A stretch of 49,996 bases of DNA from a virus (taxonomy: Duplodnaviria; Caudoviricetes). The notes below the pieces were generated by a model. It did not search any database. It was not told the DNA's origin and saw only the letters and a program-made list of their open reading frames with translations. Both the position numbers and the translations under genes were made by a program. Shown piece by piece: positions 4,023-36,542 of this stretch; the first letter of the stretch is position 1; each line of letters begins with the position of its first letter. The stretch spans positions 1-49,996 of IMG/VR virus record IMGVR_UViG_3300020045_001042. One strand, 5' to 3'.

Positions 4023-4760
4023 TTGATCGTTAATTTAGACGCCAAGTCGCTTTAGCTGGAATGGATTTCATACCTATATCTATCCCAAGATAAGAATGGT
4101 ATTCAAGAATGGCTAGAGTTCGTAGATAACCAGAAACTAAATGACATACATACAAAAAATCAAAAGGATCTTAACCTTATATCAAGGCTTATCAGTAAGA
4201 TCTTTCTTTTCAGATGCATTTATCGTGGCCCTGCTTTTGCCTATGCTCGTGATCCTGATTTCTCTAGTGTATCTACTAGTGTAAAATACTGGCAGAAAGT
4301 AATAGATAATTTCTTTGAGAAATACTATGGACTAAATCAAAAACACCTTGAACTTATACGAGAAGCTACTACTACTGGACAAACAGTTAGTCCTTTTGGT
4401 AGAGTACATGAACATAAGCAACGACAGACGAAACAAGGTTTAGATTGGAATGTCTCGGACATTACTAATCATATCAATCAAGGATGTGGTGCTGATGTAA
4501 TGGCTGTTGCTCGTGTGATCTTTGCTAGTCGTTGGATGGATAGTGGATTAGAAGGTAAGTTAATCTCTACTGTACATGACAGCATCGTAACAGACGTACC
4601 AGAGAAGAATGTAAAGGCTTGTGCTGAGATTATGTTTGATACCTTTAGAGATCTACCTAAGAGTATTAGTAAAGCATATGGAGTAGATTGGAATCTTCCC
4701 CTAATTTGCGAGGTAGCTTATGGGCCAAACATGAAAGAACAAACAGTAATAACTCTATGA
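4023..4760 (+). CDS. Family A DNA polymerase, part II (palm/fingers), interrupted by in-frame TAG at 4053-4055
   Basis: RBS GAGAGGT 4011-4017 and TTG 4023; reads MIVNLDAKSL*LEWISYL (motif A), RLISKIFLFRCIY (motif B), NQGCGADV, TVHDS (motif C); frame is open from 4056 to 4760. Confidence 0.85.
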
Positions 4761-5206
4761 TAACCTGTACTAAATGTAAACAAGAAAAAAATGAATCTGA
4801 ATTCTACAATAGAAAGGATACTAAGACCAAGAAAACAGAGAAATGTAAATTATGTGTTAATCTAACACATGCGGAATGGGAAAAACGAAATCCACATTAC
4901 CAACGAGATTATTGTAATGCTCGCAGACTTAAAAATAAATTAAGTATTATAGAAAAATTAGGGGGTAAATGTGTTCATTGTGGTTTGGTGGATAATCATG
5001 TTGTTTATGATCTACATCATCTTGATCCATCAATAAAAGAATACTCTTTAGGATTAATTCTAGATCATTCTCAAAATAAAATACAATCTGAATTAGATAA
5101 GTGTATTCTACTATGTTCAAATTGCCATAGAAAAGAGCATGATAGATTAAGAAAAGAAGTTGGTTACGGCCCTAATCAAAAAGATCTAACTGAAATAAAG
5201 ATGTAA
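4757..5206 (+). CDS. Free-standing HNH endonuclease with Zn ribbons
   Basis: CxxC pairs, DLHHLDP...LCSNCHRKEH; ATG 4757 overlaps the polymerase stop (ATGA). Confidence 0.85.
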   Translation: MITCTKCKQEKNESEFYNRKDTKTKKTEKCKLCVNLTHAEWEKRNPHYQRDYCNARRLKNKLSIIEKLGGKCVHCGLVDNHVVYDLHHLDPSIKEYSLGLILDHSQNKIQSELDKCILLCSNCHRKEHDRLRKEVGYGPNQKDLTEIKM

Positions 5207-5212
5207 AAATGC

Positions 5213-5241
5213 TTGACAAGATTAGATACTTACTGTATAAT
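5213..5241 (+). promoter_or_regulatory. Consensus sigma70 promoter
   Basis: TTGACA (5213-5218), 17 nt, TATAAT (5236-5241). Confidence 0.85.
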
Positions 5242-5254
5242 AATCTTATTGATT

Positions 5255-5288
5255 AAAGAGAAGACCCCTTAGAGGGTCTTTCTCTTTT
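5255..5288 (+). terminator. Intrinsic terminator-like hairpin
   Basis: AAAGAGAAGACCC-CTTAGA-GGGTCTTTCTCTTTT. Confidence 0.6.
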
Positions 5289-5320
5289 ATATATAAACTA
5301 ATTAAAAGGAATTAAAAAGA

Positions 5321-5857
5321 ATGAAGTTTCAGATCGAAGTCATCAACGTACAATCATCTACCAAACCAGCTAAGAATGGTACATACACTCAGCTAGATGT
5401 TGCGTATAAGCGTGTAGATACAGGTAAGATTGAAGGTAAGAAGGTTATGTCTTTTGTTAATAAAGATATCTTTAATCTATTTAGTAAGGCTACTACAGGT
5501 CAAGTCTACGATATTAATACTGAGAAAGTTGGTGAGTATTGGCAATGGACAGAAGCTAGTCTATCTAGTGGTGGTACTAGTGTAGGGCAAGAAGCCTCAG
5601 CTAAATCATTCAGTGCCTCTCCTGCACCTAAGAGTACCTATGAGACTGCTGAAGAACGTGCCAAGCGTCAAATCCTTATTGTTCGTCAATCTAGTCTAGC
5701 ACAAGCAGTAGATATCCTATCCGTTAATCCGGGTAAGGAGAAGCTACAACTAAGTGATGTGTTAGATCTAGCAGATCGTCTTGTTGGTTGGGTATTTGAG
5801 ACTCCACCTCCTCCATCAATGGATATTGGTGAGATGGATTCGGATATTCCTTACTAA
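5321..5857 (+). CDS. Putative single-stranded DNA-binding protein
   Basis: Position in the replication module, beta-rich N-terminus, acidic tail ending DSDIPY; strong RBS AAGGA. Confidence 0.55.
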   Translation: MKFQIEVINVQSSTKPAKNGTYTQLDVAYKRVDTGKIEGKKVMSFVNKDIFNLFSKATTGQVYDINTEKVGEYWQWTEASLSSGGTSVGQEASAKSFSASPAPKSTYETAEERAKRQILIVRQSSLAQAVDILSVNPGKEKLQLSDVLDLADRLVGWVFETPPPPSMDIGEMDSDIPY

Positions 5858-5870
5858 TATAAGGATTTAA

Positions 5871-6782
5871 ATGATAGGCAATATAGATGGCGACCTAGTA
5901 GGATTCAGGTGTGCTGCATCAGTCGGAGATGGTGAGGAAGAGATTGCTATTCTCCGTACTGATCGGCTAATGAGAGAACTAATTCATTCAACAGAAGTAG
6001 ATGGTTATAATTGTTTCATCTCTGGTGGTGGTAACTTCCGTAAGAAAGTTAACCCACTATACAAAGCTAATAGAACTACTGAACCACCTAAATATTTACA
6101 AGCGTGTCGTGAATTCTTATTAAGGGAATGGAACGCAGTCTTAGCTAACGGATGTGAGGCAGATGATCTCCTTGGGATTAATCAAAAGATTATCAATGAC
6201 TCATATCATTCTATGATTCTAGAGGGGCAGCAACAAGGCTGCCACGAATCTATTATTATTTCCCTTGATAAAGATCTTTTAATGATTCCGGGGTGGCATT
6301 ATTCATGGGAGATTAGTGGTGCAACATGGACTAAGGATGCATCTAAAACTTTCACTACACCATTAGAGGGACTACGCACATTCTATAAGCAAATGCTTAT
6401 TGGCGATAAAACAGATAACATCTTTGGTGTTACTGGAATTGGAAAAGTAAAAGCAGCCAAGATCCTTGATGACATCGAAGATGAAGAAGAGATGATTGAT
6501 ATAGTACATGATCTATACAACGAAGATAGTGCCCGCTTCTTAATGAACGCTCAATGTTTATGGATTATGCAACGAGAAGGAGAAACATGGGTAAGTCGAA
6601 TAAAGCACTTGATTTTACCAGATCTATTGAAACAAGAGGTGGATGCGAAGTACGATTTTATGACATCTTTGATGGACGATACATCAATGGAGCCTATTAC
6701 GACTCCTCAGATGACATCTACTATCCTCTCCAATGGGGAGTTGATGGCATGTACGGTTCTACCCGAAGTGATCTTGATCTAG
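5871..6782 (+). CDS. 5'-3' exonuclease (T7 gp6/FEN-like)
   Basis: IDGD, YKANR, EADD, DKDL, GDKTDNIFGVTGIGKVKA (H3TH). Confidence 0.9.
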   Translation: MIGNIDGDLVGFRCAASVGDGEEEIAILRTDRLMRELIHSTEVDGYNCFISGGGNFRKKVNPLYKANRTTEPPKYLQACREFLLREWNAVLANGCEADDLLGINQKIINDSYHSMILEGQQQGCHESIIISLDKDLLMIPGWHYSWEISGATWTKDASKTFTTPLEGLRTFYKQMLIGDKTDNIFGVTGIGKVKAAKILDDIEDEEEMIDIVHDLYNEDSARFLMNAQCLWIMQREGETWVSRIKHLILPDLLKQEVDAKYDFMTSLMDDTSMEPITTPQMTSTILSNGELMACTVLPEVILI

Positions 6783-6814
6783 TAAATGTAAATGATAAAA
6801 CAAAAGAAGATTAA
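6587..6814 (+). CDS. Small conserved-looking phage protein overlapping the exonuclease 3' end
   Basis: RBS GAAGGAG then ATG 6587; TRGG.EVR...W...G...DLDL pattern seen in small phage proteins. Confidence 0.55.
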   Translation: MGKSNKALDFTRSIETRGGCEVRFYDIFDGRYINGAYYDSSDDIYYPLQWGVDGMYGSTRSDLDLVNVNDKTKED

Positions 6815-7181
6815 AGTACCAAACTATAAGAGTAAATTTGAAGTAGAAGTAGCTAGTAAATTAGGAGATCTTGCAGTATATGAACCAGATAAACTTAAAT
6901 TTATTCAACCGCCTAAGAACCGCAATTATTGTCCTGACTTTAAATTGCTATCCAATGGAATATATATTGAGGCCAAGGGTAAATTTACCTATGAAGATAT
7001 GGACAAGATGTTATGGGTTAAAGAACAACATCCAGACAAACAATTCTATATCTTGTTTATGAATGCTCGTAATAAGATTCGTAAAGGTAGTCTTACAACT
7101 TATGGTGATTGGGCTACCAAGAAGGGTTTCATTTGGGCTGACTGGAAAACACAAGGAATACCAGAAGAATGGATAAAATAA
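6792..7181 (+). CDS. T7 endonuclease I-like Holliday junction resolvase
   Basis: YKSKFE...YCPDF...IEAKG...TTYGDWA. Confidence 0.85.
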   Translation: MIKQKKIKVPNYKSKFEVEVASKLGDLAVYEPDKLKFIQPPKNRNYCPDFKLLSNGIYIEAKGKFTYEDMDKMLWVKEQHPDKQFYILFMNARNKIRKGSLTTYGDWATKKGFIWADWKTQGIPEEWIK

Positions 7182-7982
7182 ATGGCGACGCATTTAGTAT
7201 TACCGGATTGTCAAATCAAACCAGAGCAAGATGTATCCTATCTTAAATGTATAGGTGAGTATATAGTAGAAAAGAAGCCAGATGTTATAATTAATATCGG
7301 TGACTTCGGAGATATGCCTTCTCTTAGTTCATATGATTTTGGTAAGAAGTCATTTGAAGGGCGTAGATATCGTGATGATGTGCAAGCTACACGAGATGCT
7401 ATGCAGATTCTAATGCAACCTATTATAGATTATAATAAGAATGCCGTAAAGAATAAAAAGAAAGTATATCGCCCACGTCTCGTGTTAACCTTAGGGAATC
7501 ATGAACATCGTATTGTGCGTGCCGTAGAAAATGATGCTAAGTTAGATGGCACAATAGGAATAGATGATCTTCACTATGAACAGTTCGGTTGGGAAGTATA
7601 TCCTTATCAAGAAGTAGTATTTATTGATGGTATTGCTTATTCCCATGTGTTTACTACTGGAGTAATGGGACGACCAGTTACATCTGCTCGTGCTCTTGTT
7701 ACTAAAAAACATATGAGTTGCATTCAGGGACACAACCAGAAAATGGAGATCTATAGTGAGTATCGTGCAGATGGAACCATGCTTACCGGGCTCTTCGCCG
7801 GATGTTGTTACCAACATGACGAAGCATACCTCGGTCCTCAAGGGAATAATTACTTCCGAGGAATCCACATGCTCTACGATGTCAATGAAGGACACTTCCA
7901 TTGCCATTCCATTACTCTGGACTATCTCCTTGCTAGAACTAAACGAAGGTTACGTGATGGATCTATGGAAGGAATACAATGA
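7182..7982 (+). CDS. Second metallophosphoesterase
   Basis: PDCQ, IGDFGD, GNHE, SH and QGH motifs. Confidence 0.8.
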   Translation: MATHLVLPDCQIKPEQDVSYLKCIGEYIVEKKPDVIINIGDFGDMPSLSSYDFGKKSFEGRRYRDDVQATRDAMQILMQPIIDYNKNAVKNKKKVYRPRLVLTLGNHEHRIVRAVENDAKLDGTIGIDDLHYEQFGWEVYPYQEVVFIDGIAYSHVFTTGVMGRPVTSARALVTKKHMSCIQGHNQKMEIYSEYRADGTMLTGLFAGCCYQHDEAYLGPQGNNYFRGIHMLYDVNEGHFHCHSITLDYLLARTKRRLRDGSMEGIQ

Positions 7983-8161
7983 AATCGGTTGGCAATAAAT
8001 ATTCTAAATATAAATGTCTTCTCTGTGGTGATATAATCTCATCTTCTTATGAAGGTGAATTTGTTACTTGCTCATGTAAGAAATGTTCTATAGATCAAAC
8101 TAAGTCTTATATGAGATTAATAGGTAACATCCATGATATGGAGTTAGTTAAAGATGAGTGA
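7979..8161 (+). CDS. Small Zn-finger protein
   Basis: CLLCGD...CSC. Confidence 0.6.
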   Translation: MKSVGNKYSKYKCLLCGDIISSSYEGEFVTCSCKKCSIDQTKSYMRLIGNIHDMELVKDE

Positions 8162-8531
8162 GCAGGTATGGCCTATGGTAGTACGAGATATGCTGAATCG
8201 TAATGAAGCTGGTGCTGTTAAATACAACAGATATCTACGAACAGACTGTCCAGACAATATGCTCCAACATGCATACGAAGAATCATTAGATCTCTGTGTA
8301 TATCTAAAAACACAGATAGAGAAAGAGAATCAAACACGCCGTGAGGCGCTATTAAAGGAAAAAGAAGAATGGATGTTAAAAAGTATCAGGACTGGACTAT
8401 CACAACAGCAGTCTACCCCAATGCAGGAGAGCATGGATTTAACGAAGCTTTGTATCTCACCCTCGGACTTTCAAGTGAAGCTGGTGAGGTCGCTGGAAAG
8501 ATTAAGAAAATCATCCGAGGAGACAAGGTAG
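8154..8531 (+). CDS. Hypothetical protein, possibly all-alpha NTP pyrophosphohydrolase-like
   Basis: GAVKY...LQHAYEESLDLCVYL. Confidence 0.5.
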   Translation: MSEQVWPMVVRDMLNRNEAGAVKYNRYLRTDCPDNMLQHAYEESLDLCVYLKTQIEKENQTRREALLKEKEEWMLKSIRTGLSQQQSTPMQESMDLTKLCISPSDFQVKLVRSLERLRKSSEETR

Positions 8532-8722
8532 AACCGGAAGCTCTTGTATCTGAACTAAGTGATGTTCTATGGTATCTTACCCGTATGTGTGATAACTTAG
8601 GTTTCAGCCTAGAAGATCTAGCAGATTATAGTTATAATAAACTAGAGAAAAGAAAAGAGATGGATGTTATTAAAGGAGATGGCGACACAAATGAAAGTCG
8701 AATTATTACAGATAACACCTGA
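8369..8722 (+). CDS. MazG-like nucleotide pyrophosphohydrolase
   Basis: GLSSEAGEVAGKIKK...ELSDVLWY. Confidence 0.85.
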   Translation: MDVKKYQDWTITTAVYPNAGEHGFNEALYLTLGLSSEAGEVAGKIKKIIRGDKVEPEALVSELSDVLWYLTRMCDNLGFSLEDLADYSYNKLEKRKEMDVIKGDGDTNESRIITDNT

Positions 8723-9251
8723 TGCAGAATCCTTCATAGGCAAGTGTGCTAGTATCTGTTATGATTCTTCTATAGAGCGGGAGGCGTGCATCAAGCGCGC
8801 CACCGCTTGTGTAGATAAGGGGCATCTAGCAACCCTAAGATTTGCGCATGCTACATTTAAAGTAACTGGTATTAGTAGAGCATGTAGTCATCAATTTGTG
8901 AGATCTAAACATCTAGACTTCTTACAACGATCACAACGATATTGTAATGAAGATGATACTACTTTTGTATACCCTATACATAGTATAGCACTCTCCGCTT
9001 ATTATTATAAATGTCTTGATTTATATCAGGATCTTATTTCTTGTGGAGTTAAGAAAGAAGATGCTCGTTATGTATTACCTGAAGCTACTTGTACAGAGTT
9101 AATAGTAACAGGTAACTTTCAAGCTTGGCTAGACTTCCTTGAACTAAGATCGGGTAAGGAAGTACAATGGGAAATACGCCATGTTGCACAAGAGATTAAT
9201 AAACTTCTTATGCAAGAATGTCCAAATATATTCAGAGGATTAAAAGAATGA
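8691..9251 (+). CDS. thyX: Flavin-dependent thymidylate synthase
   Basis: GH, SRACSHQFVR, SQRY, EDARYVLP and QWEIR motifs. Confidence 0.88.
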   Translation: MKVELLQITPDAESFIGKCASICYDSSIEREACIKRATACVDKGHLATLRFAHATFKVTGISRACSHQFVRSKHLDFLQRSQRYCNEDDTTFVYPIHSIALSAYYYKCLDLYQDLISCGVKKEDARYVLPEATCTELIVTGNFQAWLDFLELRSGKEVQWEIRHVAQEINKLLMQECPNIFRGLKE

Positions 9252-9628
9252 GTCTTCTATTAACTACTCTCCTATCTGCCTTGGTGCCAGTAGGAGTTGA
9301 AGGACTTAAACAGGGGATTACTACTTTAGTTGGTGGTGTCAAACCCACTACAGTAGCAGAACAACTCCAACTAGATGATCAAGAGATCAAGCGTCTAAAC
9401 GCTATAGCAACATTAGACAATCCGGGTGGTACTCCTAGTCAATGGGTTATAGATCTACGTGCCAGTGCACGTTACATCGGTGCAGGTATGGTTATAGCAT
9501 CCGGTATTACTGCGTTATTTGTTCCAAACTTAGATCTTACCGTTAAGACCATTGCATTTGAGGGTGCAAACATAGCATTTGGATTTTTATTTGGAGCCCG
9601 CATCGTAAATGGTATAGGTAAAAAATAA
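9248..9628 (+). CDS. Membrane protein, holin-like
   Basis: Hydrophobic segments and C-terminal FGFLFGAR...KK resembling 3TM holin families. Confidence 0.5.
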   Translation: MSLLLTTLLSALVPVGVEGLKQGITTLVGGVKPTTVAEQLQLDDQEIKRLNAIATLDNPGGTPSQWVIDLRASARYIGAGMVIASGITALFVPNLDLTVKTIAFEGANIAFGFLFGARIVNGIGKK

Positions 9629-9799
9629 ATGAAAACAATCCAAGATTATAAAGAAGAACTTATTGAGCAAGATCAAGTAGAACTAATTGATATCCTTGAT
9701 ATTAGTTCTTCTGATTTGGTGGACAGATTTGATGATCGGGTAGAGGATAGGTTCGATGAACTATATGACGAAAGTGATGACGAAAAAGAAGAAACCTAA
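9629..9799 (+). CDS. Small acidic protein (56 aa)
   Basis: MKTIQDYKEELIEQDQVELIDILDISSSDLVDRFDDRVE...; directly follows the previous stop. Confidence 0.55.
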   Translation: MKTIQDYKEELIEQDQVELIDILDISSSDLVDRFDDRVEDRFDELYDESDDEKEET

Positions 9800-9897
9800 C
9801 CGTCAATTAGAACGGGAATTAAAACAAGGTAAACGATCTTATCGTCTGCGTCTAGATGAAGAAGTATTAAATAAAAAAGAAATTAAAGACTATACGA

Positions 9898-12314
9898 ATG
9901 CAAATAAATAGATTTAAAAATGACTTCTCCGAACGAATCTTCAAGCTCAAATACGCGCAAGGAGTTAACGATACATGGGACGCGCTCTCCGAGAGGCTGG
10001 TGTCTGATGTCTGTGGAACACGGGGTGGGCGAGACAAAGCTCTTATGTCTGAACAAGATAGAGAGCAGCTTACAGACTATATTAAACGCATGTTGTTTAT
10101 CCCCGGAGGCCGTTATCTCTACTATGCTGGCAGACCCAACTCTTACTATAACAATTGCTTTCTCCTACGAGGGGAAGAAGATACCCGAGAAGAATGGGCA
10201 GAATTAATTAAACGAGCAGCAAGTTGTTTACTTACAGGAGGTGGAATTGGAATTGATTATTCGCGCTTCAGGCCAGCAGGTAAACCTTTATCCCGTACAG
10301 GGGGAATCAGCTCAGGTCCTATACCGCTTATGCAAGCAATTAATGGAATCGGAGCGGGAATTATGCAGGGAGGTTCAAGGCGTTCTGCAATTTACGCCTC
10401 GCTCAACTGGCTCCACGAAGACATACCCGACTTTCTAAAGATTAAGAACTGGTCACAACAGATCAAGGATCTTAAAGCAAACGATTTTAATTTCCCGGCT
10501 ACTCTGGACATGACTAACATCAGTATCAACTACGATGATAAGTGGTTGTACAATGCTGATAGAGCTAATCTTAATACGTTCGTTGAGAACTGTCGTCAAG
10601 CAATGATGACTGGTGAGCCAGGATTTAGTTTTAACTTTGGAGATAAACAAAACGAGACTCTTCGCAACGCGTGTGACTGAAGTAACAAGCGAAGATGATT
10701 CAGATGTGTAAATCAGTGCACCTTCAGAGAGGAATCTCTGTAGCAAATTTCCTAATATCGGTGGAAGCATGTTATGATGTAACACCGAGCCAGCCTATTA
10801 AGGGGGCGTAACGACTATGAAGACTAATATGATGCAGTTATCTAAGTTTTTAACTTGGAGTGTTTCTGGTGATGGATATATTGGATATTCTACTAATAAT
10901 AAGAATGCTCATTATTCTATTTCTAGAAGTGCAGAACATAAAGATTACTTAGATGTAATCGCCAATAAATTTATTGGTTTACAAGAATGTAGTGTAAGGA
11001 TTGATGAATACGTACGAAAGGATAATAACAAACTTGTATTGGATCTAAGAACAAATAGTCATCCAATATTTAGTAGAGTACGTGAACGTCAGTATATTCA
11101 AAATCATAAAGTAATAGATCCACATCAACTTACAATGTTAGATTGGGAGGCAGCAGCTTTCTTATTTATGGATGATGGATCTACTTGTTATAATAATAAA
11201 GGATCTATGATTGTTAGACTTTCTACTTGTCATTTCTCTTATGGAGATAATGAATTACTTAGAAAAGCATTCATAGAAAAATTAGGAATGATTTGGAATA
11301 TAAATCGTAATGGAAATGTTTGGCAATTAAATCTAGCTAAACAATCTAAAGATGAGTGGTTTGATAAAATTACTCCCTACATAGTAGATTCTTATAAATA
11401 TAAACTGCCTGAGTCTTTGCAAAAGGAAACATCCAGAACGGATGGTGATCTTGTCTATATTGGAAGCTCCCCCGATAGGTAATTTAGGGAGTGTAAATCT
11501 AGGAAACATAAATTCCATAGAAGAATTAAAACATGTAGTTGAATTAGCAAGTAAGTTCCTTGTTTGTGGAACACTGCGTGCTGATTTACCTTATGATAAA
11601 GTATATAAAGTTCGAGAAAAGAATCGACGCCTTGGTTTAGGTTTAATGGGCATCCATGAGTGGCTCCTCAAACGTGGATACGGATATGAAGTAACACCTG
11701 AATTGCATAAATGGTTGGAGGTATATGAAACAATTTCTAAAGAAGCTGCTGACGAACATTGTGATAGGTTATTTATCAATCGGCCTATTGCTTACCGTGC
11801 CATTGCTCCTACAGGTTCTATCGGGATTCTGGCAGGGACTACTACTGGTATTGAGCCGCTGTTTGCTGTGGCCTATAAGCGTCGTTACCTCACAGACGGG
11901 ACAAGGTGGAAGTATGAATATGTTGTCGACAGTACAGCAGATCTTCTCATAAAAGAGTATGGATTAGATCCAGATAAAATTGAGACAGCTTATAAACTAA
12001 GTCACGACTATGAAAAACGAATTAAGTTCCAATCTGAGATCCAGCAATATGTCGATATGTCAATTTCAAGCACGATTAACTTACCTGCTTGGGGATCAAA
12101 AGAAAATAATGAATCAAAAGTCAACGAGTTTGCTAACATACTCTCCAAATATGCTCCGACTTTACGCGGCTTTACTTGCTACCCAGACGGAAGTAGAGGA
12201 GGTCAACCCCTCACTGAAGTAAGTTATAAAGAAGCAGTTCAACATAAAGGAACTGTGTATGAAGAGAACGATGTTTGTATCATTACAGGTAAGGGAGGAT
12301 CTTGCGGAGTATGA
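9898..12314 (+). CDS. nrdJ: Class II-type ribonucleotide reductase; predicted exons 9898-10674, 10676-10709, 11479-12314 (548 aa)
   Basis: PGGR, NNC, GGGIG, RRSA, GEPG, NAC/TE...VC/NLGSVNL, RRLGLG, IAPTGS, GIEP and C-terminal CxxxxxxxxC; no beta-subunit gene in the genome. Confidence 0.85.
10710..11478 (+). mobile_element. Group I intron in the RNR gene
   Basis: Removal joins GTG T|GT AAT (V-C-N-L-G-S); 5' exon ends in U and intron ends in G; P1 GUGU/GCAC, P2 CAGAGA-GGAA-UCUCUG, P3 UUUCCU/AGGAAA, P4 UCGGUG/CACCGA, P7 GACUA/UUGUC, P8 CAUCC-AGAAC-GGAUG. Confidence 0.9.
10817..11482 (+). CDS. Intron-encoded two-motif LAGLIDADG homing endonuclease
   Basis: FLTWSVSGDG and AAFLFMDDG motifs; lies inside the RNR intron. 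Confidence 0.85.
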   Translation: MKTNMMQLSKFLTWSVSGDGYIGYSTNNKNAHYSISRSAEHKDYLDVIANKFIGLQECSVRIDEYVRKDNNKLVLDLRTNSHPIFSRVRERQYIQNHKVIDPHQLTMLDWEAAAFLFMDDGSTCYNNKGSMIVRLSTCHFSYGDNELLRKAFIEKLGMIWNINRNGNVWQLNLAKQSKDEWFDKITPYIVDSYKYKLPESLQKETSRTDGDLVYIGSSPDR

Positions 12315-20535: not shown

Positions 20536-22428
20536 TTAACTATCTCCTTCGTAGAAAGAAACTTCCATAGATTCTAGACGCAATGGATAACCTGTAGAAT
20601 GTTTAATGTTGAAGGCTCTTCGTCTGAAAGATCCTAACCTAGCAACATTAGGAAAGTCATCATTGAGGGGGACTACCTTTGTATTGGACCACGTTTGATA
20701 ATCATCATCCGACCACTTAATATCTATAGTATCAGATCTATCTCCAACTAATCTCATATTACGCATGAACTTCCTTTTGTATGTATCCATATCATATTTA
20801 TTTGTAGTGAGATCCACTAGAATTTCTACACCATCATCTTGATAAACAGTTGGATCTACTTTATATATACACCCATTAGTAGTATGTAATATGTAAGCTG
20901 CTCCTGTGTGAAGATCAGTCATGTAATTATATGAGAATACTGAATGAGAGCCACTGTTATTTGTTGACCATTCATGCCATAATTTTTCCTCTGCATCATA
21001 CACTAACGTTCTATTTGAGGTAGGTAAATTTATTAAATAAAATAAATGTCCCATAGATCTAAAACCAAATCCATAACAATTCATTGGATCAGTTTCTTGA
21101 TCTAAGATACGTTCAATAAATTCATCACTTATCTTAGTTGGTTTAAATCCTTCTACTTGCCAAACAGATCTACCTCCAGATTCAGATTGACCAGTGAAAA
21201 CGAATGTACCTTCATTTTGATATATGGCATATGGAAAAGCACATCCAATCTGTATAATAGTAGAGTCATTTCTACTTAATGGAGATCCACTTGCATTAGC
21301 GGCATCGTAGAAAAACTCAATAGATGTTTCACCAAAAACAACGACTTGATTATTTTGTCTAGCCAATCCAACAACAGGATCAGGGAACATCTCAGCAGAT
21401 AGATACTCTCCAGCATTCCATATATAAGGTTCATCTAAAGAGCAATTATAAACATCACTTCCTTTCGCTAATAGAATATAACCATCTATATATGTAGGGA
21501 TGGGTATATGTGGAGTAGGAAAATTATTAACTACTGCTGTTGCTGTTCCTTGTGTAGTAGGACCGCCCGTACTAATAGAATGTGTTCCTGTTCCATTAGT
21601 TGTAAAGTTTACAGCAGCACCTCCAGAAGTTAGACTTACTTGGAATGTATAAGTAGTTGGGTTAACTATATAGTATATAGTTGCTGTACTCAATCCAGTA
21701 GGTAGTCCACCAGTAGTTTTTAGTTTTATTCTATCGCTTGTTGTTAGTTGATGTGGAACAACACTAGTCAGTAGATCTGTTGTAGAATCGGCTGTTACTG
21801 CGGTAGTAAATGTTATTGTGGGTAGTGTTGTATAACCACTACCAGAAGATGTTATATTTATTTCTGTTAATAATCCTCCAGATATAACAGCATCGGCTGC
21901 TGCTCCAGTTCCACTACCTCCAGTAAAATAAACTTTAGGGGCAGTAACATACACAGATCCAGCAGTAACCACTGTAACACTGCCTATACCATCAGCACCA
22001 ACATTCAGAACAGATCCATCTGATTTTACAATCCATGCGGAGGTTCCATCACAAATAAAAAGATAGTCTCCAATAATAGTAGAATTGGCTACCAACATAC
22101 CAACCTTACTAGTTGCATCTGTTAATGTAATAACAGATGTTGGTGGAGTTCCATCCTCATATACATGTCCATCTACACAAGCATAAATCTTATTTCGAAA
22201 GTAAGCAATACCTCTACCAGTACCCTCTCCAAAATCTTTATATAAAGTAAGACCCGGCCTCTTATTTAGAAAGATACGGGTGCTTTCTATTGCCTCTACT
22301 TTTCGTGTTTCTGGGAAGATGTTAATAAATCGTTGATCTTTAGTTGCAACTGCATTACGATTAGTCATGGAGCCGAGCAAGGGTAATCGTATATTTTGCT
22401 CTTGATATTTATTCCTTTGTTGTGCCAT
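20536..22428 (-). CDS. P22 gp10-like tail hub/packaged DNA stabilisation protein
   Basis: KRPGL, YIDGY, SAEMFPD, FGETSIEF, WSDD..TW...RLG..RRRAF motifs. Confidence 0.75.
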   Translation of the reverse strand: MAQQRNKYQEQNIRLPLLGSMTNRNAVATKDQRFINIFPETRKVEAIESTRIFLNKRPGLTLYKDFGEGTGRGIAYFRNKIYACVDGHVYEDGTPPTSVITLTDATSKVGMLVANSTIIGDYLFICDGTSAWIVKSDGSVLNVGADGIGSVTVVTAGSVYVTAPKVYFTGGSGTGAAADAVISGGLLTEINITSSGSGYTTLPTITFTTAVTADSTTDLLTSVVPHQLTTSDRIKLKTTGGLPTGLSTATIYYIVNPTTYTFQVSLTSGGAAVNFTTNGTGTHSISTGGPTTQGTATAVVNNFPTPHIPIPTYIDGYILLAKGSDVYNCSLDEPYIWNAGEYLSAEMFPDPVVGLARQNNQVVVFGETSIEFFYDAANASGSPLSRNDSTIIQIGCAFPYAIYQNEGTFVFTGQSESGGRSVWQVEGFKPTKISDEFIERILDQETDPMNCYGFGFRSMGHLFYLINLPTSNRTLVYDAEEKLWHEWSTNNSGSHSVFSYNYMTDLHTGAAYILHTTNGCIYKVDPTVYQDDGVEILVDLTTNKYDMDTYKRKFMRNMRLVGDRSDTIDIKWSDDDYQTWSNTKVVPLNDDFPNVARLGSFRRRAFNIKHSTGYPLRLESMEVSFYEGDS

Positions 22429-27377: not shown

Positions 27378-28199
27378 CTAGAGAAAAACAGGCAGGGCCG
27401 AGATGCCGCTGATTCTCCGTGCGTTGTCCTGCGTCACCAGTTCGCTGATGTTTTTAGGCAGGCCACTGGCCGTGAATCTGGCGAACTCAAACCCTGAGAA
27501 CTTGCCATCGACCGTGTTGCCTGTTGCACTTCGACCGAGTGCAAATGGGCTTGTCATGATGTCTGTTGCAAGCACAGTTGTCGCCGTCTGCACGAGGGCG
27601 GAAACGCCGTCAATGTAGGCTGTGAATGCCTTGCTGACAGCATCCCACGACACCAGAACTCGGTGGTCTGATCCATTCGCAGCTACCGCAGTCGAGTACG
27701 TGACAGCGACGAATGCGCCATTTACCCACAAACGCGGGCCAACTTGACCGGATGCGTTGATGTTGATGTTGACACCCGGAAGCAATGAACCATCAGCACA
27801 TCCCGCGACTGTTTCGGTTCCGGCTGGCGTTGCTTTGTTCAATGTAAACGCAACGATAAACGAATCAGTTGATAGATTCAAATTCACGGCGCTGTTTGGC
27901 ACGATTAACGATGAATTACCGGCACCTGCAACGGATGTGAAATACCCAGCATTCGCCCAAGGCGTCGCTGCTGATGCGCCGAACGCAATGGGGACAGACA
28001 ACCCGCTGTAATCAGTAGGCAAGACGCTAGAGCCGCCACTCTGATTCAGGGGTAGTAAAACAGAGGTGTAGTCCATGCCCGAAGGCTGCACCAAAGGCTG
28101 ACCATTCACGGGTGAAAATTTAATCCTCCCGGTGACAGGATTAGTCTCTGCTGTTATGATATTACCTGTTGATACACCACTTCCAATAGAAACAGACAT
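27378..28199 (-). CDS. LamG/ConA-like lectin domain virion protein
   Basis: DYSG, DHRVLVSWD...AYIDG...ALGR...FSG pattern. Confidence 0.65.
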   Translation of the reverse strand: MSVSIGSGVSTGNIITAETNPVTGRIKFSPVNGQPLVQPSGMDYTSVLLPLNQSGGSSVLPTDYSGLSVPIAFGASAATPWANAGYFTSVAGAGNSSLIVPNSAVNLNLSTDSFIVAFTLNKATPAGTETVAGCADGSLLPGVNININASGQVGPRLWVNGAFVAVTYSTAVAANGSDHRVLVSWDAVSKAFTAYIDGVSALVQTATTVLATDIMTSPFALGRSATGNTVDGKFSGFEFARFTASGLPKNISELVTQDNARRISGISALPVFL

Positions 28200-28201
28200 G
28201 A

Positions 28202-28510
28202 TTATCGTAGTCCTTGTAAGAGTGTAACAGTCGTTGTTCCTGTTCCTGCTGTATTATTAATTCGCATTGCCCTAATAGGGAATGCATAATTACCGTCGAA
28301 GTTTGCAGACTTCCCAGTAATTATAGAATTCTTAAAAGCTGTAGGTGTTATAGTAGAATCGAATACATCATCAAATGTATGCTCTATATCATATGTAATA
28401 GTTCCAGTAACAACACATCCCATACCTACATTGAAGGGAGCTTGTTTATAATCTAGTGGAATCCATGCGCTCTGTCCTGTACCAGTTAGCGAAATTACTT
28501 GTGGTCGCAT
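28202..28510 (-). CDS. Small structural protein
   Basis: Beta-rich; directly downstream of the capsid genes. Confidence 0.55.
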   Translation of the reverse strand: MRPQVISLTGTGQSAWIPLDYKQAPFNVGMGCVVTGTITYDIEHTFDDVFDSTITPTAFKNSIITGKSANFDGNYAFPIRAMRINNTAGTGTTTVTLLQGLR

Positions 28511-28526
28511 TTTATTTCCTTTAATA

Positions 28527-28572
28527 AAAGAAAGGGGAAGAGTCCAGCGATTAAGCTATCATCTCCCCCTTT
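28527..28572 (-). terminator. Intrinsic terminator after the capsid genes
   Basis: Minus strand AAAGGGGAG...CTTCCCCTTTCTTTT. Confidence 0.55.
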
Positions 28573-28579
28573 GGGTTTG

Positions 28580-28984
28580 TTACAGTGTAAGCCCTTGTGG
28601 CGGAATGTAATATTCCACTTTAACAATAACTGGTGTAGTTAATGTTGCACTAGCTTTAATGTACACAGGTTTATCTGAGGTCTGTTGAACACCTACGGAT
28701 GTACCTGTCTGTGCCCCAGATGGAGCGTAGCCAGTTGAGTTAGGAGCAAAGGCATTTACAAGCTCTGTTCCACCATCAGTAAACCCTACATTAATAGTCT
28801 GAGTGGTATTAGCACCTGTACATATCGTATAGATACCCATAACTACTGCATACTTAGGAAGTTTAAATGCTAATACACCTGTGGTGCCATCAGCTACTTC
28901 CACAATACCTAACTTTGTATAACCATGTCTTGGGACTGGGGTGATTGTAGAAACACCCCCCGGCCCTACGCCATATACTGCCAT
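28580..28984 (-). CDS. Probable capsid decoration protein
   Basis: Follows the major capsid gene; FKLPKYA.V, INVG beta-sandwich pattern. Confidence 0.5.
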   Translation of the reverse strand: MAVYGVGPGGVSTITPVPRHGYTKLGIVEVADGTTGVLAFKLPKYAVVMGIYTICTGANTTQTINVGFTDGGTELVNAFAPNSTGYAPSGAQTGTSVGVQQTSDKPVYIKASATLTTPVIVKVEYYIPPQGLTL

Positions 28985-30620: not shown

Positions 30621-31013
30621 TTAAGTTTTCCCATCTATCTTCAGACTACCATAGTCAGCAGCAGATTGGGCTTCTTTTCTCATAGATTGTTCGAGTTCTT
30701 TAAGTTTCTGTTCTTTGTAAGCTTGATCTTCTTTGTAGTATTCATCCTTAATTCGCATAAGGAATCCATCAATCCCACCCCCAACAGCAACCTGAACAGG
30801 AGAACCATCAGCAGATGCTCTCCCAACTCGTCGATCACCAATTGTTATTGAACTGTCAGTGACAATCTCATAGCCCTGTTCTTGGAACGAGGCAACACGA
30901 TCACCAGTGTCATTCACAATTCTATAAACATAGCCGGGTTCTTTACCCTTTATTCCTAGAACGGAACGGTTCGCTAGTGATGTACGCTGTGTACGTGTGG
31001 TCTTAGTTACCAT
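30621..31013 (-). CDS. Conserved head-module hypothetical protein
   Basis: PGYVYRIVND...GYE...LMRI. Confidence 0.6.
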   Translation of the reverse strand: MVTKTTRTQRTSLANRSVLGIKGKEPGYVYRIVNDTGDRVASFQEQGYEIVTDSSITIGDRRVGRASADGSPVQVAVGGGIDGFLMRIKDEYYKEDQAYKEQKLKELEQSMRKEAQSAADYGSLKIDGKT

Positions 31014-31841
31014 TTACTTATTCCCTCTTAGTTGTTTAACTTGTTCGATATATTCTTCTTTAGTTAGAATACCTTGACGTACAAAAGTATTCATTACCTT
31101 ACGCTCATCTTCTGTTAGTTCAAAAGATGTCTTTCCCTTTGCAACGCCTCTAGGAGTCTCTCCTTCGACTGCTGCGGAACGCTCTCTATTTGGATTCTGG
31201 AAGGAGTCTTTAAACTTAGACTTAACTTCTCGTGTCACATATTTCAAGACTAGCTCAGGATCAATGCCCGGATTCTTGGACGCATATCCTTGTCCGATAA
31301 TATCAGCATAGTCTCGCATATCTTGATTCTTTTCATACCAAGAGTTTGATTGTGCCCAATCCACAAATCGAGGATCAATTTGATTCTTAGGTTGGGTTTC
31401 TGCTACAACTTCACGAGCCTTTTGTTCTGCACGAAGATCCGTTAGAAGTTCAGTAGTCTCGATGTAACCATCAGAGTCTCCGCTTTCTAAGTGCTTCTTC
31501 TGTAGAGCTTTAAGCTCCTCCACCGCACGCTTATATTCAGTTTCCTTTACCTTCGTGTGATGCTCTTGTAACATCTTTAGAGCTTTGCGTGTTTCCTTTA
31601 GCTCCTTACCCATTGTATCAATCTTGCCATACAACTCACCACGTTCTACGAACTCTTTACTATCACGCCATTTCTCAGGATCGCCATCCCATTCATCTTT
31701 AGGACGCCATCCCATCTCACGGGCTTCTTGCTCGTAATGCGATACTTGTGTAGTATCTCCTGTTTCTTGTTGTGTTTCGTCTTGGTCGTTTGTTTCAATA
31801 GAAGTATCTACTACTCCACCATCCAAATTTTCAACTGACAT
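31014..31841 (-). CDS. Scaffolding protein
   Basis: Acidic N-terminus, AREMGWRP, coiled coil, N.WY, C-terminal LTEDERK...EEY; lies between portal and capsid. Confidence 0.7.
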   Translation of the reverse strand: MSVENLDGGVVDTSIETNDQDETQQETGDTTQVSHYEQEAREMGWRPKDEWDGDPEKWRDSKEFVERGELYGKIDTMGKELKETRKALKMLQEHHTKVKETEYKRAVEELKALQKKHLESGDSDGYIETTELLTDLRAEQKAREVVAETQPKNQIDPRFVDWAQSNSWYEKNQDMRDYADIIGQGYASKNPGIDPELVLKYVTREVKSKFKDSFQNPNRERSAAVEGETPRGVAKGKTSFELTEDERKVMNTFVRQGILTKEEYIEQVKQLRGNK

Positions 31842-31844
31842 CTT

Positions 31845-32144
31845 TTATTCCTTAATAATAACTAAGAGGTCCTCATCATTGCAGACGACGTACTTAGTGT
31901 TGTCTATATCTTGTACTTCCTTGCCACTATATTTGGCAATAATAACTCGATCACCAACCTTAACTGTATCCTTAGAACCACCATAGTCCTTGAATACCGT
32001 ATCTCCAATTGAGACAACAGTACCAATTTCAACAGCCTTACGTTCTTTTTCGATTAAGTCTTTTGGAATTACAATACCACTCGCTGTAACCTCTTCAATA
32101 TCATCTAACTTCAATATAATCCGGTGCAGGATCGGAGCTAACAT
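31845..32144 (-). CDS. groES: GroES-like co-chaperonin
   Basis: PILHRI, TASGIVIP mobile loop, GTVVSIG, VKVGDRV...KYSG, NDEDLL. Confidence 0.88.
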   Translation of the reverse strand: MLAPILHRIILKLDDIEEVTASGIVIPKDLIEKERKAVEIGTVVSIGDTVFKDYGGSKDTVKVGDRVIIAKYSGKEVQDIDNTKYVVCNDEDLLVIIKE

Positions 32145-32362
32145 TATTCGCTTTCCTCCATATCCTCAAATCCAACGCCTAAGATATCATTGTTAGCGGA
32201 GATATACCCACGAAGATAGTTATCAAACGTTGGATCTAATCCAGCATTACCTGCAAGAGTATTCTTTGCATCTTCAATTCGTTCATTAATCTTAATCATT
32301 ACCATAGTGGTAACTGGATCGGCCTTCCAATTTAAAAAATCACTAGAACTTATTACGGACAT
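32144..32362 (-). CDS. Hypothetical protein
   Basis: 72-aa ORF coupled between portal and GroES. Confidence 0.6.
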   Translation of the reverse strand: MSVISSSDFLNWKADPVTTMVMIKINERIEDAKNTLAGNAGLDPTFDNYLRGYISANNDILGVGFEDMEESE

Positions 32363-32365
32363 GTC

Positions 32366-34417
32366 TTATTTTCCCTTTGGAATTTGTTTTTCTTTACTTT
32401 GCTTCAGTTTTTGCTCATGTTGTGCTACCATCGTAGCTAATTTTACGTTACCCTCTACAGCTTTTTGTTTTGTTGCTTGTTGTGCGCTAACTGCTTTGAG
32501 GAAACCTTCTACTTGCTTACTCTTTGCCTCTAATTCTGCTGACTGAGCCTTCATTTGTAGGTCATTCTGCATACCAGCCGCTCGAAGTTGAGCTTCTCGT
32601 TCTTTAATCTGCATATCTTGAGTAGCTTTTTGTGTATCTAACTGTGCTTTCATCTTCATAGCCTCTACCTTTGGATCAGGTGGGGGTGGAGATGGTTGTT
32701 TAATGTACTTCTCGGCATTAGGAATCTCAAATGCTTCAAGATAAGCCTGTGTAACTTCCATTGGATCAAGAGTACCTAGCTGGAGGATCTGCATCATAGC
32801 TTGTACTCTGGCCTGCTTCTCTTGATTAGAAGAGGCGGTTGGGTCAGCGCCCGGAACTATATCATTTTCAGAACCTTGGTAGTCATCTTGACCTACTTCC
32901 AGATCTAGAACATCTATATATTCCTGTGGATTCAGATAGGTCTTATTAAGACGATACAGCTTTCGGAATTCCTTCTGTAGAGAACGATATACTCGTTTAT
33001 ATACAGCCGTAAAAACCTTCATCCCTTGATCTATAGAAGCCATCGTAGTAGTTGCAGGGGTATTCTGCCCCGGCATCTTACCAGTCATAATCTCAGCAAC
33101 AGAAGCTAGTTCCTTACCAGACTTCAGAAGGAGATCTAGTAGATTAAATAGAACTGAGCTAGGTTCACGTACAGGTAATGGGAAGATCTGCTTCTTGATG
33201 TCATCTCCAGTAGCATTAACTGCTTTCCACTCACCGGGAGTAAACTTAGCTTCTCCCATCTTGATACGAAGACCTTTACCTATGAAACCTGCTTGTAGAT
33301 TACTTAGAGAACCTGCATCCACCAGTTGATTAATAATCGTATTTGCTGATTCATTAATGGGGCCAAGAAGCCTACCAAAACCAATGTCGTAAAAACCACC
33401 GTCAGGGTTTGGTATAAATGAATATTTCGTGTAATACTGGATTGGATCAATGTAAATAACTTTAGATTTCTCATCTACTTGTACATCTTCTTCAAGAAAG
33501 CGTGGGACAAGTCGTAAGACCTTTTTACTATTAAGTTCTACAGTAGCAACATAAGGTTCAGGATAATCATCACCATCAAGGTCAAAGAAGCAATGCTGCT
33601 CTAACATTGTATATGGAGTAGTCTCATCCATTGTTGCTCGATGTTGCATTGAATCTTTAATCTTAGAACTATCAAAGGGATCTTGTTCAGTAGGATCACC
33701 TAGATTAATATCTAGATAGAGTCCACTGTTAACTCGTTCCTTTACTTGTCGCTTAGATAGAGGAAGTACCTCAGTAACTCGTTCAGCATCCTCAAGAGAT
33801 CTAGCATTATAATTAACGACTAGATACTTTGGTAAGATAAGCTTAGAACAGTTCTGTTGCTTGATAGGATTCCAGTAAGTCTTCTTAAAACATGTACCAG
33901 CAATCGGAAGGGATAAAAGTAACTTATCCATATCCTCTTCCCAATCTTCCATCTCATCTAAGATCTGGTAAGACATATGGGTTGATATACGGAAAGCTCG
34001 TTCAGCCTTCTCACCTGTAGGATCAGAACCTACTGTTTTACAGTGCACTATCTTACCATTAGCAGGAACTAAGGTAGGATAGGCACGGGCCTCGAACTGC
34101 ATAGCAGCAGTAGCGAGAAGTGGAAACTTGATATTAGCTGCCCCTTGCCACGGGTACGTTTTCTTTTCCCCGATTTGCAGAGCAAGCTTAGTCCAAGTCT
34201 CCAGATCTTTTTCCCACGGTTCACGTGACGCTAAATCTGTTTCATAACCAGAGACTACGTCATCTCCGATTATTTGTAAATCATCTTCATCTAGAAGGCT
34301 GGCAATATTCTTTGAAGCAAGGATATCCTCTAGTGTTAGGTAGTCATCAAACTCTTGGTTTGTACCTTGGAATGTTTCATCCTTAGTATCCACAGATAGA
34401 ACTTCGTCCTTCTTCAT
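32366..34417 (-). CDS. Portal protein
   Basis: PWQGAANI, GTCFKK, GGFYDIGFG, long Gln-rich C-terminal barrel; follows the terminase. Confidence 0.85.
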   Translation of the reverse strand: MKKDEVLSVDTKDETFQGTNQEFDDYLTLEDILASKNIASLLDEDDLQIIGDDVVSGYETDLASREPWEKDLETWTKLALQIGEKKTYPWQGAANIKFPLLATAAMQFEARAYPTLVPANGKIVHCKTVGSDPTGEKAERAFRISTHMSYQILDEMEDWEEDMDKLLLSLPIAGTCFKKTYWNPIKQQNCSKLILPKYLVVNYNARSLEDAERVTEVLPLSKRQVKERVNSGLYLDINLGDPTEQDPFDSSKIKDSMQHRATMDETTPYTMLEQHCFFDLDGDDYPEPYVATVELNSKKVLRLVPRFLEEDVQVDEKSKVIYIDPIQYYTKYSFIPNPDGGFYDIGFGRLLGPINESANTIINQLVDAGSLSNLQAGFIGKGLRIKMGEAKFTPGEWKAVNATGDDIKKQIFPLPVREPSSVLFNLLDLLLKSGKELASVAEIMTGKMPGQNTPATTTMASIDQGMKVFTAVYKRVYRSLQKEFRKLYRLNKTYLNPQEYIDVLDLEVGQDDYQGSENDIVPGADPTASSNQEKQARVQAMMQILQLGTLDPMEVTQAYLEAFEIPNAEKYIKQPSPPPPDPKVEAMKMKAQLDTQKATQDMQIKEREAQLRAAGMQNDLQMKAQSAELEAKSKQVEGFLKAVSAQQATKQKAVEGNVKLATMVAQHEQKLKQSKEKQIPKGK

Positions 34418-36542
34418 TTAAGCCACTCTCTTCTTTTTCTCGTTCATAATCATCATCGTCCATCTCTTCCTTGGTGGGGGCTTCAATAATCTTATCAATC
34501 ATTAGACCCAAATAAGCCATACTATCAACCTGATCGTCATGCTTATCTCTAGGGAACCTCATTAGCTCATCTTCTAATGCTTGATACCATTCAGCAGTCT
34601 TATCAAACTTAACTGCACCAGCCCTCATCCGGGCTTGTATAGATTTGGCTCTTGTTTTCTTATCTGCTTTATGGGGCTTGAGTGGAATGATATTAAGGAA
34701 AGTATTCCGTTCTATCATTGTTCGATTAAGGAAAGGCCCAATGGCCTTACTTACTTGCATATCCTCAATACCAAAAGCAATCGGATCATATAGATTCTGT
34801 AGAGCTAGTAGAGTATCTACAATCTCCATACCATCCATACGATCTCGGATAACGTTTATGATATGAAGAACACCATCCTCATCCATACCACCTACGATCA
34901 TTACTGTGTAATCTGCACGCTCTGATTCAGAGATAGCAAAGTCACCTGAGATGTAGTAATTTAGTTTCTTCTTCTTATCGTCTTCCCGGCGAGAGGCGAA
35001 GTCATTCTTCTTAAAGAAGGTATTAGCTTCATCTATCGGAACATTCAGATACTCCTGAGAGTAGACATCAGCTAGGCCACGATCTATATAATCCTGACGG
35101 ATTAATCGGAATTCATTAGCTGTTCTACGTTCAGGCCATAGAATCTGAGAGAAGTCTTGGTTATGTGCTCTGTACTTAACTGTCTTCCACTGTGAAGCAG
35201 ATCTAGTTGAGTACATCTTTAACTCTTCTTGTACAGTATATTTGTCTGTATCTCTAGGCATTAGATTCTCTAAGAAGGAATCCATATGTAGCACAGTACC
35301 TACTATTCGTATAATACCATTCTGAGATCTACAGGGGATCAGGGCACCATACACCCATCTCTTAAACTTCTCACGACGATCTTTATTCATAACGACTTCA
35401 TCATTCTCTAAGTCATCACAAACAATCAGATCAGGTCGAGATCCATTCCACAACATACCACGTAGTTTTTGTTCACTACCTTTAGCAACTATTCGGAACT
35501 TAGTTCCATCAGCAAAAGAAACAATGATGTCGGTCGCTGAATCCTTTTCAAAGGAAACCTCACCCTTCTCATTCTTCTTTAAATTGAATAGTTCTATAAT
35601 GTCTTGATTCTCTTGCAACTCTTGTGTTATCTGCCCAAGGAACATCGCCGCTTGGGATTCCGTATCGCTTACCAGCAATACAAATCTTCGATTACGAAAT
35701 AGAACATTTGCTAGTACATAACTAAGGGAAATGGCCGTAGATTTTGCGTGCTTAACTGTAATCCCAGATTCCTCTGGGTGCCGGACTATACCTTCTTCAA
35801 TCTAAGGAGTTAATTTCTTGTATCTTATCTTTTAATAATCCACGTAAGAGGATTACATCATCTGATGTTCTCTTAGTAGTTCCCATAGTTTCTTGGAATT
35901 CTATGCCTAAAAGAGCAACTTCCTTTTTATGAATGAGATAAGGTACTAACTGCACCAAAGCATCTTTAGCTTGATTACAACTTAAAGTCCAAACCCACTG
36001 TTCTTTTCTATTATAACCTTCTCTATTGGGGCCACTATTCTTTACCCTTATAGTACCACCAAACAAGGATTGTAATTCTTGTAATGGGGGTTGCTGTGCT
36101 TGACAAGCTCCTACCCTAAGATATAAACTTGTATATACAGTTTCTTTTACTTTCTGTGTTCTACGTTGGACAGTAATAAAACCATCGCCATCAATAAAAC
36201 CAGCGGCCCACGCAAGCCGATGCGATTTAGACATAGTGTCTTCTCCTTAATAATTACTTTGATGATCCCCGTCTAGTCTCTACACCTTCCACGGTATGTG
36301 GCTTGGCTCGGTATTGTCCGTTCTGGAGTTCACCGAATTTGAGGATTGTTTAACGCGAGGCCATGCTGTTAACCACGCGGTGCTGATATAGCAACAAATC
36401 TACTTTTAGAAGTACACAGTTCCCACATTTCATCATGGAACTGGGGTATTTGTGACGCATCATCAAACCTGTTTATCAGACATGTTCCAACGAATCCGTG
36501 GATCACATCCTTAGTAAGTTGTACTACATCATTTACAGCCAT
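34383..36542 (-). CDS. Terminase large subunit; exons 36542-36372 and 35750-34383 (512 aa)
   Basis: Spliced Walker A SAPRG|HAKST, Walker B VCDDLE, coupling motif GTVLH, nuclease SGDFA and HDDQVD. Confidence 0.9.
35751..36371 (-). mobile_element. Group I intron in terminase Walker A
   Basis: GGU|UAA...UAAG|CAC boundaries; P1 CGCGUGGU/GCCUCGCG, P4 UUCGGUG/UACCGAG, P7 GACUA/UAGUC, P9 CCCAGA-GGAA-UCUGGG. Confidence 0.92.
35797..36234 (-). CDS. Intron-encoded single-motif LAGLIDADG homing endonuclease
   Basis: LAWAAGFIDGDG; RBS AAGGAG; lies inside the terminase intron. Confidence 0.9.
   Translation of the reverse strand: MSKSHRLAWAAGFIDGDGFITVQRRTQKVKETVYTSLYLRVGACQAQQPPLQELQSLFGGTIRVKNSGPNREGYNRKEQWVWTLSCNQAKDALVQLVPYLIHKKEVALLGIEFQETMGTTKRTSDDVILLRGLLKDKIQEINSLD

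Follow-up and report, generated by a model that had tools for sequence, protein, structure and literature searches.

Group I ribozymes engineered for trans excision-splicing (TES) hold the 5' exon by the pairing P1 and the 3' exon by P10, use their own 3' G as the nucleophile and can remove a single G, as laid out in sections of PMC2532722; excision of a single nucleotide in vitro and in E. coli is likewise covered in part of a review (PMC6155759). At the level of translation, portions of 10.1101/2022.08.31.505936 report that the insert of T4 gene 60 protects against MobA, and that its take-off stem-loop is conserved and the 5' one is not, while 10.1101/2024.12.09.627546 argues that upstream pairing has a part in driving bypass. 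Stop-hops over nine bases have been obtained from synthetic constructs, and no natural in-frame stop-hop was known in 2016, according to sections of PMC5009743. The sequence analysed here, referred to as the window, is the whole of the virus record IMGVR_UViG_3300020045_001042 (49,996 nt, with direct terminal repeats and rated 100% complete). Its family A DNA polymerase, class II ribonucleotide reductase (nrdJ) and terminase large subunit (terL) genes carry four interruptions, the two smallest of which probably call on two different mechanisms: the nrdJ intron would excise a single G inserted upstream of it, and the insert in the polymerase gene would be hopped by ribosomes.

The interruptions measure 6 nt (4053-4058), 1 nt (10675), 769 nt (10710-11478) and 621 nt (36371-35751, minus strand), as a sequence-only reading of this DNA had located them, and open frames are restored once all four are removed. 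That reading had proposed a genome-wide system in which full ribozymes remove minimal satellite introns from essential genes. The four interruptions are not one system. The satellite idea finds support locally at nrdJ, where covariation in a small sample backs it well: the insert occurs only with the full intron and covaries with its guide. It is not supported for the polymerase insert or the terL intron, and at nrdJ the partner of the insert is no genome-wide pool but the intron that begins 34 nt downstream in that gene. The nrdJ locus is arranged as follows.

9898..10674, plus strand: exon 1 of the class II (B12-type) ribonucleotide reductase, whose last codon is the Cys of NxCxE
10671-10674, plus strand: second P1 strand, predicted to pair with the intron guide
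10675, plus strand: inserted single G, a candidate 1-nt coreless intron, causing a frameshift to an immediate stop
10676..10709, plus strand: 34-nt micro-exon with the catalytic Glu
10676-10680, plus strand: P10 strand in the micro-exon, predicted to pair with the guide
10706-10709, plus strand: the intron's own P1 strand in the micro-exon
10710..11478, plus strand: group I intron in nrdJ (769 nt), with P1, P2 and P4-P6 from alignment folding and P3, P7 and P8 from alignment; ends in G
10713..10721, plus strand: internal guide sequence with its wobble G at 10718, complementary to the upstream junction without the G
10817..11482, plus strand: intron-encoded LAGLIDADG endonuclease (PF03161, E 2e-20)
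11479..12314, plus strand: ribonucleotide reductase exon 3

The extra G at 10675 lies between the Cys and Thr codons of N-A-C-T-E, 34 nt upstream of the intron. The intron's own 5' exon ends in the same four nucleotides that precede the G, which gives the guide two places at which P1 and its U.G pair can form. In addition, the five nucleotides that follow the inserted G are perfectly complementary to the five guide bases 5' of its wobble G. The guide and the G-less junction form a predicted gap-free 9-bp duplex of P1 and P10, with the G bulged and the U.G pair at the cut, whereas against its own 3' exon the guide has no Watson-Crick P10 run. The predicted duplex energy in the window is -13.9 kcal/mol at the G-less junction versus -4.8 kcal/mol at the intron's own junction, and the latter value is also -4.8 in a related contig (L129; such labels are our handles for other contigs and records).

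Searches with the intron endonuclease and with the junction pattern showed that seven further phage lineages have this intron at this position. Inserts were present in three of the eight intron-bearing alleles, namely a G in the window, a G in L129 and UG in L138, and a stop follows the insert at once in all three. By comparison, none was found in 90 rows without the nrd intron, some of which repeat a contig and two of which end at the intron site. In the viral collection, a scan for inserts of 1-30 nt at the nrd site gave 41 matches, among which those in nrd were the L129 contig and L138 only. The metagenome scan for nrd-site inserts gave four matches, one of the same length and allele as L129 and three unrelated; the genome scan for the nrd intron also gave four, one nearly identical to L134 and three unrelated. 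In cultured phages, nothing matched the nrd junction and the start of the intron at the DNA level. Two further observations concern these contigs. The record that contains a near copy of the L134 locus (L308) bears the title of an archaeal metagenome-assembled genome, which may be a case of misbinning. The L003 and L045 contigs both end no more than a few bases from the nrd intron site, which perhaps reflects mixed intron-plus and intron-minus populations.

The presence of the insert follows the guide. At the insert junction, the Watson-Crick P10 run is 5, 6 and 5 pairs in the alleles with an insert versus 1, 3, 1, 0 and 1 in those without, and the duplex energies are -13.9, -14.8 and -13.9 kcal/mol versus -5.2, -6.9, -2.2, -8.0 and -1.8 kcal/mol. 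The 4-nt P1 word before the site is found in all three insert alleles and in none of 70 distinct intronless alleles. As a plain table, three of three against none of five has a chance of 1 in 56, although the alleles are related and so not independent. All three insert alleles also have the layout of a TES substrate, with a 5' exon that ends in U and pairs as P1, an excised piece that ends in G, and a 3' exon that pairs with the guide as P10. No catalytic core is possible in 1 nt (nrd) or 6 nt (polymerase), so neither insert is a group I intron in its own right.

From this comparison it is likely that the nrdJ intron removes the upstream insert of 1-2 nt, which would make it a natural counterpart of engineered TES. 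The intron would act twice on its own message, removing itself and excising the G 34 nt upstream (two bases in L138). The nucleophile could be the 3' G of the released linear intron, or free GTP with the intron still tethered, and the cut would fall after the U. The 3' OH of the exon would then attack behind the G, restoring NxCxE. Either order could apply, with self-splicing before excision of the G, or excision first while the intron is tethered. As a consequence, an allele with the insert could not lose the intron without losing the enzyme, and the addiction mechanism put forward by the sequence-only reading follows logically for nrdJ only. The insert is unnecessary for the intron's own spread, because five of the eight intron alleles do without it. 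Its possible benefit is immunity to the endonuclease of a rival intron inserting 2 nt away. Such an intron exists in L033 (8771-9573), where a full group I intron with an endonuclease-like open reading frame occupies the same nrd Cys codon, 2 nt from the site of the tiny insert. The immunity to homing endonucleases suggested by the sequence-only reading would be a plausible benefit for both tiny inserts.

The intron itself is, by alignment and predicted folding, a group I intron, and self-splicing is predicted. The P1 U.G pair at the 5' splice site is invariant in all eight nrd introns, and the terminal G is present in all seven complete members. The core from P3 to P8, including the G:C pair of the G-binding site in P7, can be traced, with compensatory changes in 13 of the 27 predicted P1-P6 pairs. 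An opposition of U.U in P7 is common to all seven aligned nrd-type introns. RF00028 did not detect the nrd intron in the Rfam search.

Several points weigh against excision at nrdJ. Only three insert alleles are available, and since the introns of the window and L129 are sisters (support 97/97), they amount to at most two independent cases. L138 is a long branch that the tree neither joins nor separates, the exon tree is without a supported fork, and the L138 intron breaks off near 1396, in a seemingly chimeric contig, so that a complete core is not seen in it. A partial duplex and the P1 word are also present in L137, which carries no insert. Of the five P10 pairs, one is shared with the ordinary P1 extension, leaving four informative ones. 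In unguided folding, the lowest-energy fold of the window fragment prefers the intron's own P1 and shows no insert bulge, whereas in L129 and L138 the insert is bulged out of the guide duplex. Finally, a 9-bp match is not rare genome-wide, and the guide ranked 10th in a whole-window scan; the argument at nrdJ therefore rests on position and covariation.

The immediate stop in all three alleles, together with the apparent recoding of the polymerase gene in the same phages, could also be read as a sign that the nrd insert is bypassed by ribosomal frameshifting or hopping, or by transcription slippage, with the guide match incidental. This is unlikely. The site has no matched codon for re-pairing and no homopolymer run, the 1-nt and 2-nt inserts both fit U...G yet would need opposite shifts, and the restriction of the inserts to alleles with the intron and a matching guide would be left unexplained. 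A frameshift compensated at the intron junction was also considered and was rejected, as the stop follows at once.

It is quite unlikely that the insert alleles are dead genes, with deoxynucleotides supplied by the host and with the complementarity left behind by an intron formerly inserted at the upstream site, or by a DNA hairpin event. The full intron of L033 in the same Cys codon, 2 nt off, and the partial match without an insert in L137 would suit such a history, but the guide and cut position of the L033 intron differ from the insert junction. Moreover, both exons are open in the window and in L129 despite a DNA identity of 66% in the 5' exon, and the same lesion is kept. Protein identity between the two is 69% and 75% for the flanking exons, and it is on the open frames and these identities that the case for purifying selection on nrd rests.

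Assembly or sequencing error is extremely improbable as the source of the inserts. All the sequences are metagenomic assemblies, and L019 has an unrelated frameshift elsewhere in nrd. However, inserts recur at the same site in divergent contigs, accompanied by a covarying guide or by matched codons: a 6-nt Leu-stop-Leu insert is also present in L085 and L091, and the 1-nt G in L129. Both tiny inserts have thus been found again in other phage contigs, and the dismissal of random error in the sequence-only reading stands. That reading had noticed no comparable lesions in the other recognisable conserved genes, and a noisy comparison with seven related records, judged by eye, likewise showed no other broken conserved gene.

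The region around the 6-nt insert in the polymerase gene contains the features listed below.

2865..4007, plus strand: N-terminal half of DNA polymerase A, with the 3'-5' exonuclease and the start of the polymerase domain (PF00476, weak PF01612); the split is common to relatives
4014..4052, plus strand: predicted stem-loop that spans the start-codon region and reaches the take-off Leu codon (-10.2 kcal/mol)
4023..4760, plus strand: C-terminal half of DNA polymerase A, with a TTG start, interrupted after codon 10
4053..4058, plus strand: 6-nt insert in motif A, consisting of an amber stop and the landing Leu codon, likely hopped
4757..5206, plus strand: free-standing HNH endonuclease directly 3' of the polymerase (phrog_2255, E 7e-33)

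Counting the window, a polymerase insert was found in 16 distinct loci, with a length of 6 nt in six, 4 nt in five, 2 nt in three and 8 nt in two; the pattern scans behind this count gave 29 matches and at least 119 loci, most of them unrelated. In insert-free alleles the spacing between the Asp and Glu of motif A is constant. The 6-nt inserts read Leu-stop-Leu in six of six, with all three stops used, and in 12 of the 14 inserts at the Leu site the landing codon, which directly precedes the Glu, is CUN. The codon after take-off is a stop in all six of the 6-nt inserts and in L188, and a sense codon in the other seven. These patterns suggest that the insert is likely passed by a ribosome hop from a Leu codon over the stop to the next Leu. 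It would represent a miniature bypass of the T4 gene 60 type that breaks a nuclease target and leaves the protein unchanged.

Structure and neighbourhood are consistent with a hop. The mean energy of the predicted stem-loop is -11.0 kcal/mol for 14 distinct insert alleles versus -5.0 kcal/mol for 27 insert-free ones (p 1e-5, with kinship uncorrected), and a predicted stem-loop of at least five pairs is present in 12 of the 14 insert regions versus 11 of the 27 controls. An endonuclease gene is adjacent in 13 of the 16 insert loci versus five of 36 insert-free loci, a count based on a scan of 53 of the 57 listed open reading frames plus one from L091. On the other side, the landing codons of L077 and L188 are imperfect, the 8-nt inserts of L082 and L096 are unexplained by a hop, and three of the 16 insert loci are without a recognised endonuclease. 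The insert loci were also sampled in a different way from the control loci, and the two sets are related; the HNH endonuclease of the window lies downstream of the polymerase and may target another site.

Some additional observations were made at these loci. The tail of the HNH gene at 4757-5206 is a near copy of the C-terminal residues of the polymerase, suggesting insertion into the 3' end of the gene together with a replacement tail. The 8-nt inserts (L082 at about 2410-2420; L096 at about 7120-7132) sit in motif A one codon beyond the Leu site, where an HNH gene lies immediately upstream and the 5' stem is strong, and neither a clean hop nor a U...G excision that preserves the Trp fits them. 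In L091 and L088-L090, the C-terminal half has no ATG, GTG or TTG at its expected start, so that non-standard initiation or coupling is possible. Apparent 18-nt inserts in L168 and L213 were dropped as mis-registers of the pattern in uninterrupted genes.

Read-through is most easily imagined at an in-frame amber codon, and the stop could in principle be read as an amino acid, or translation could restart behind it. This is distinctly unlikely, given that all three stops and frame-changing inserts of 2 and 4 nt occur at the same site, that read-through would add two residues between the Asp and Glu of motif A, and that a restart would lose the Asp. A recoding of TAG was rejected because TAA and TGA occupy the same place.

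It is very unlikely that the polymerase insert, along with all tiny inserts, is a satellite intron removed in trans by the full ribozymes of the phage, as the sequence-only reading had it. The nrdJ case makes the principle plausible, and all four interruptions of the window can be written as U...G. So can the polymerase inserts of L085, L091 and L214, and the 8-nt inserts too if the product changes Trp to Leu. However, ten of the 14 Leu-site inserts misfit this rule and only four fit it; these assignments were made by eye. The expected co-occurrence with introns carrying matching guides, found at nrdJ, fails at the polymerase gene, where a whole-window scan for a guide to the insert junction gave no match at the 5' end of either intron, and the window holds only two ribozyme cores (searched by Rfam, by a model derived from the nrd introns and by a motif scan). 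Three further genomes, G013 (93% complete), G014 and G016 (both 100%), carry the polymerase insert, and in them no group I intron was detected by the same three methods; an nrd-type intron is missed by Rfam alone and detected by the other two. In L085 the polymerase insert is present and nrd is uninterrupted. The guide of a polymerase intron in L096, with an 11-bp complement to motif A, was considered as a second case of guided excision and rejected: L080 has the same intron and guide without the insert, and L082 has an insert without the intron.

The fourth interruption lies in the terminase gene.

36372..36542, minus strand: terminase large subunit exon 1
35751..36371, minus strand: group I intron of 621 nt in the Walker A region of terL (RF00028 32.7 bits, E 2.8e-8, under the cut-off of 50)
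35797..36234, minus strand: intron-encoded LAGLIDADG endonuclease (PF00961, E 5e-6)
34383..35750, minus strand: terminase large subunit exon 2 (PF17289)

The terL intron has a core, a P1 with its own exon and a terminal G, and its guide pairs with its own 5' exon in the P1 fold. Among 11 related records, terL is an open frame of 497-521 aa in ten, and the eleventh (G007) carries the same intron at the same site (RF00028 52.4 bits) with no tiny insert seen. It is an ordinary self-guided mobile intron that serves its own junction. More introns or intron-sized gaps were noted in the phage group, at G001 1335-2133 (minus strand), G007 ~28060-28720, G002/L096 7284-8000 and L080 1833-2062, and in L059, L060 and L218; they fall in the major capsid gene, in the polymerase gene (two sites) and at a third nrd site near residue 390.

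The genome of the window encodes a split family A polymerase, a class II ribonucleotide reductase, ThyX and a terminase. The identity of nrdJ follows from an intact relative that aligns with Thermotoga NrdJ (1XJK) across NxCxE and the second Cys. Cultured relatives are distant, with best protein identities of 42% for the polymerase and 55% for nrd. In the comparison with the seven related records, a single further difference emerged, an in-frame insertion of about 453 nt in the gene at 20536-22428 (minus strand), seen relative to G002 and G006 and probably an extra domain in a virion protein. The Rfam scan of the whole window added two tRNA-like elements and nothing else. One of them (41058-41143, plus strand; Rfam 47 bits, missed by ARAGORN) has an unusually large anticodon loop, which can be interpreted as a CAU anticodon with a 13-nt U...G insert behind it, at a position that resembles the intron site of Azoarcus tRNA-Ile. 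No matching guide was seen for it, and alignment to the tRNA-Met of relatives was uninformative. The other (40954-41054, plus strand) can be read with a UAU anticodon and a long variable arm, a layout similar to that of a tRNA-Ile(TAT) called in G001.

If excision at nrdJ is real, it would be a natural use of a reaction described only for engineered ribozymes in the literature searched, acting on the smallest possible intervening sequence. It would also give a selfish intron a route to becoming indispensable and provide a naturally tuned ribozyme for single-base RNA repair, and some phage genes that look frameshifted beside introns would be functional. A wider proposal is somewhat less likely than not: that phages carry a recurring class of coreless introns, down to one base, beyond nrdJ and filed as frameshifted pseudogenes. 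In such introns, a neighbouring released linear group I intron would remove the insert as a guided RNA editor, and the insert would shield the motif from a rival homing endonuclease and fix the intron in place. The polymerase series would add natural candidates for hops of 2-6 nt, including in-frame Leu-stop-Leu, which sections of the 2016 review describe for synthetic constructs only (PMC5009743). The literature searched for natural TES, with few subscription papers and in main texts only, gave engineered excision only, and the phrase "in trans" was not matched in the available text of a phage intron review (PMC3984707) or of a 2025 phage intron survey (PMC11878797).

Among known systems, engineered TES by Pneumocystis, Tetrahymena and Candida ribozymes, in the parts of PMC2532722 and PMC6155759 that describe it, has the same geometry of P1 (with its U) and P10 around a single G as the nrdJ insert. 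In contrast to these, the nrdJ case is natural and predicted, with an unmodified, endonuclease-bearing intron whose target is in its own transcript 34 nt upstream, and one nrdJ relative has a 2-nt insert. The multi-intron genes of phage Twort reportedly contain tiny exons and undergo exon skipping, each intron having its own core. They share with nrdJ the short exons beside group I introns and, as proposed for nrdJ, the use of another splice site by one ribozyme, whereas the upstream "intron" of nrdJ is 1-2 nt long and coreless. Phage group I introns with LAGLIDADG genes in nrd, polymerase and terminase genes, as treated in sections of PMC3984707, show the same U.G pair, terminal G, P1-P9 core, endonuclease open reading frame and insertion in catalytic motifs; relative to them, the nrdJ intron stands apart in a P10 strand better suited to a second, coreless site than to the intron's own 3' exon, and in its P7 U.U opposition. 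The polymerase insert resembles T4 gene 60 with MobA and the synthetic stop-hops, as far as these are described in portions of 10.1101/2022.08.31.505936 and PMC5009743, in its matched codons, a stop in the A site (in the 6-nt inserts and L188), the predicted upstream structure, the free-standing endonuclease that neighbours most insert loci and the split essential gene. It differs from gene 60 in that the inserts are 2-8 nt rather than 50 nt long, that motif A lies ten codons from the start, and that several endonuclease families are involved.

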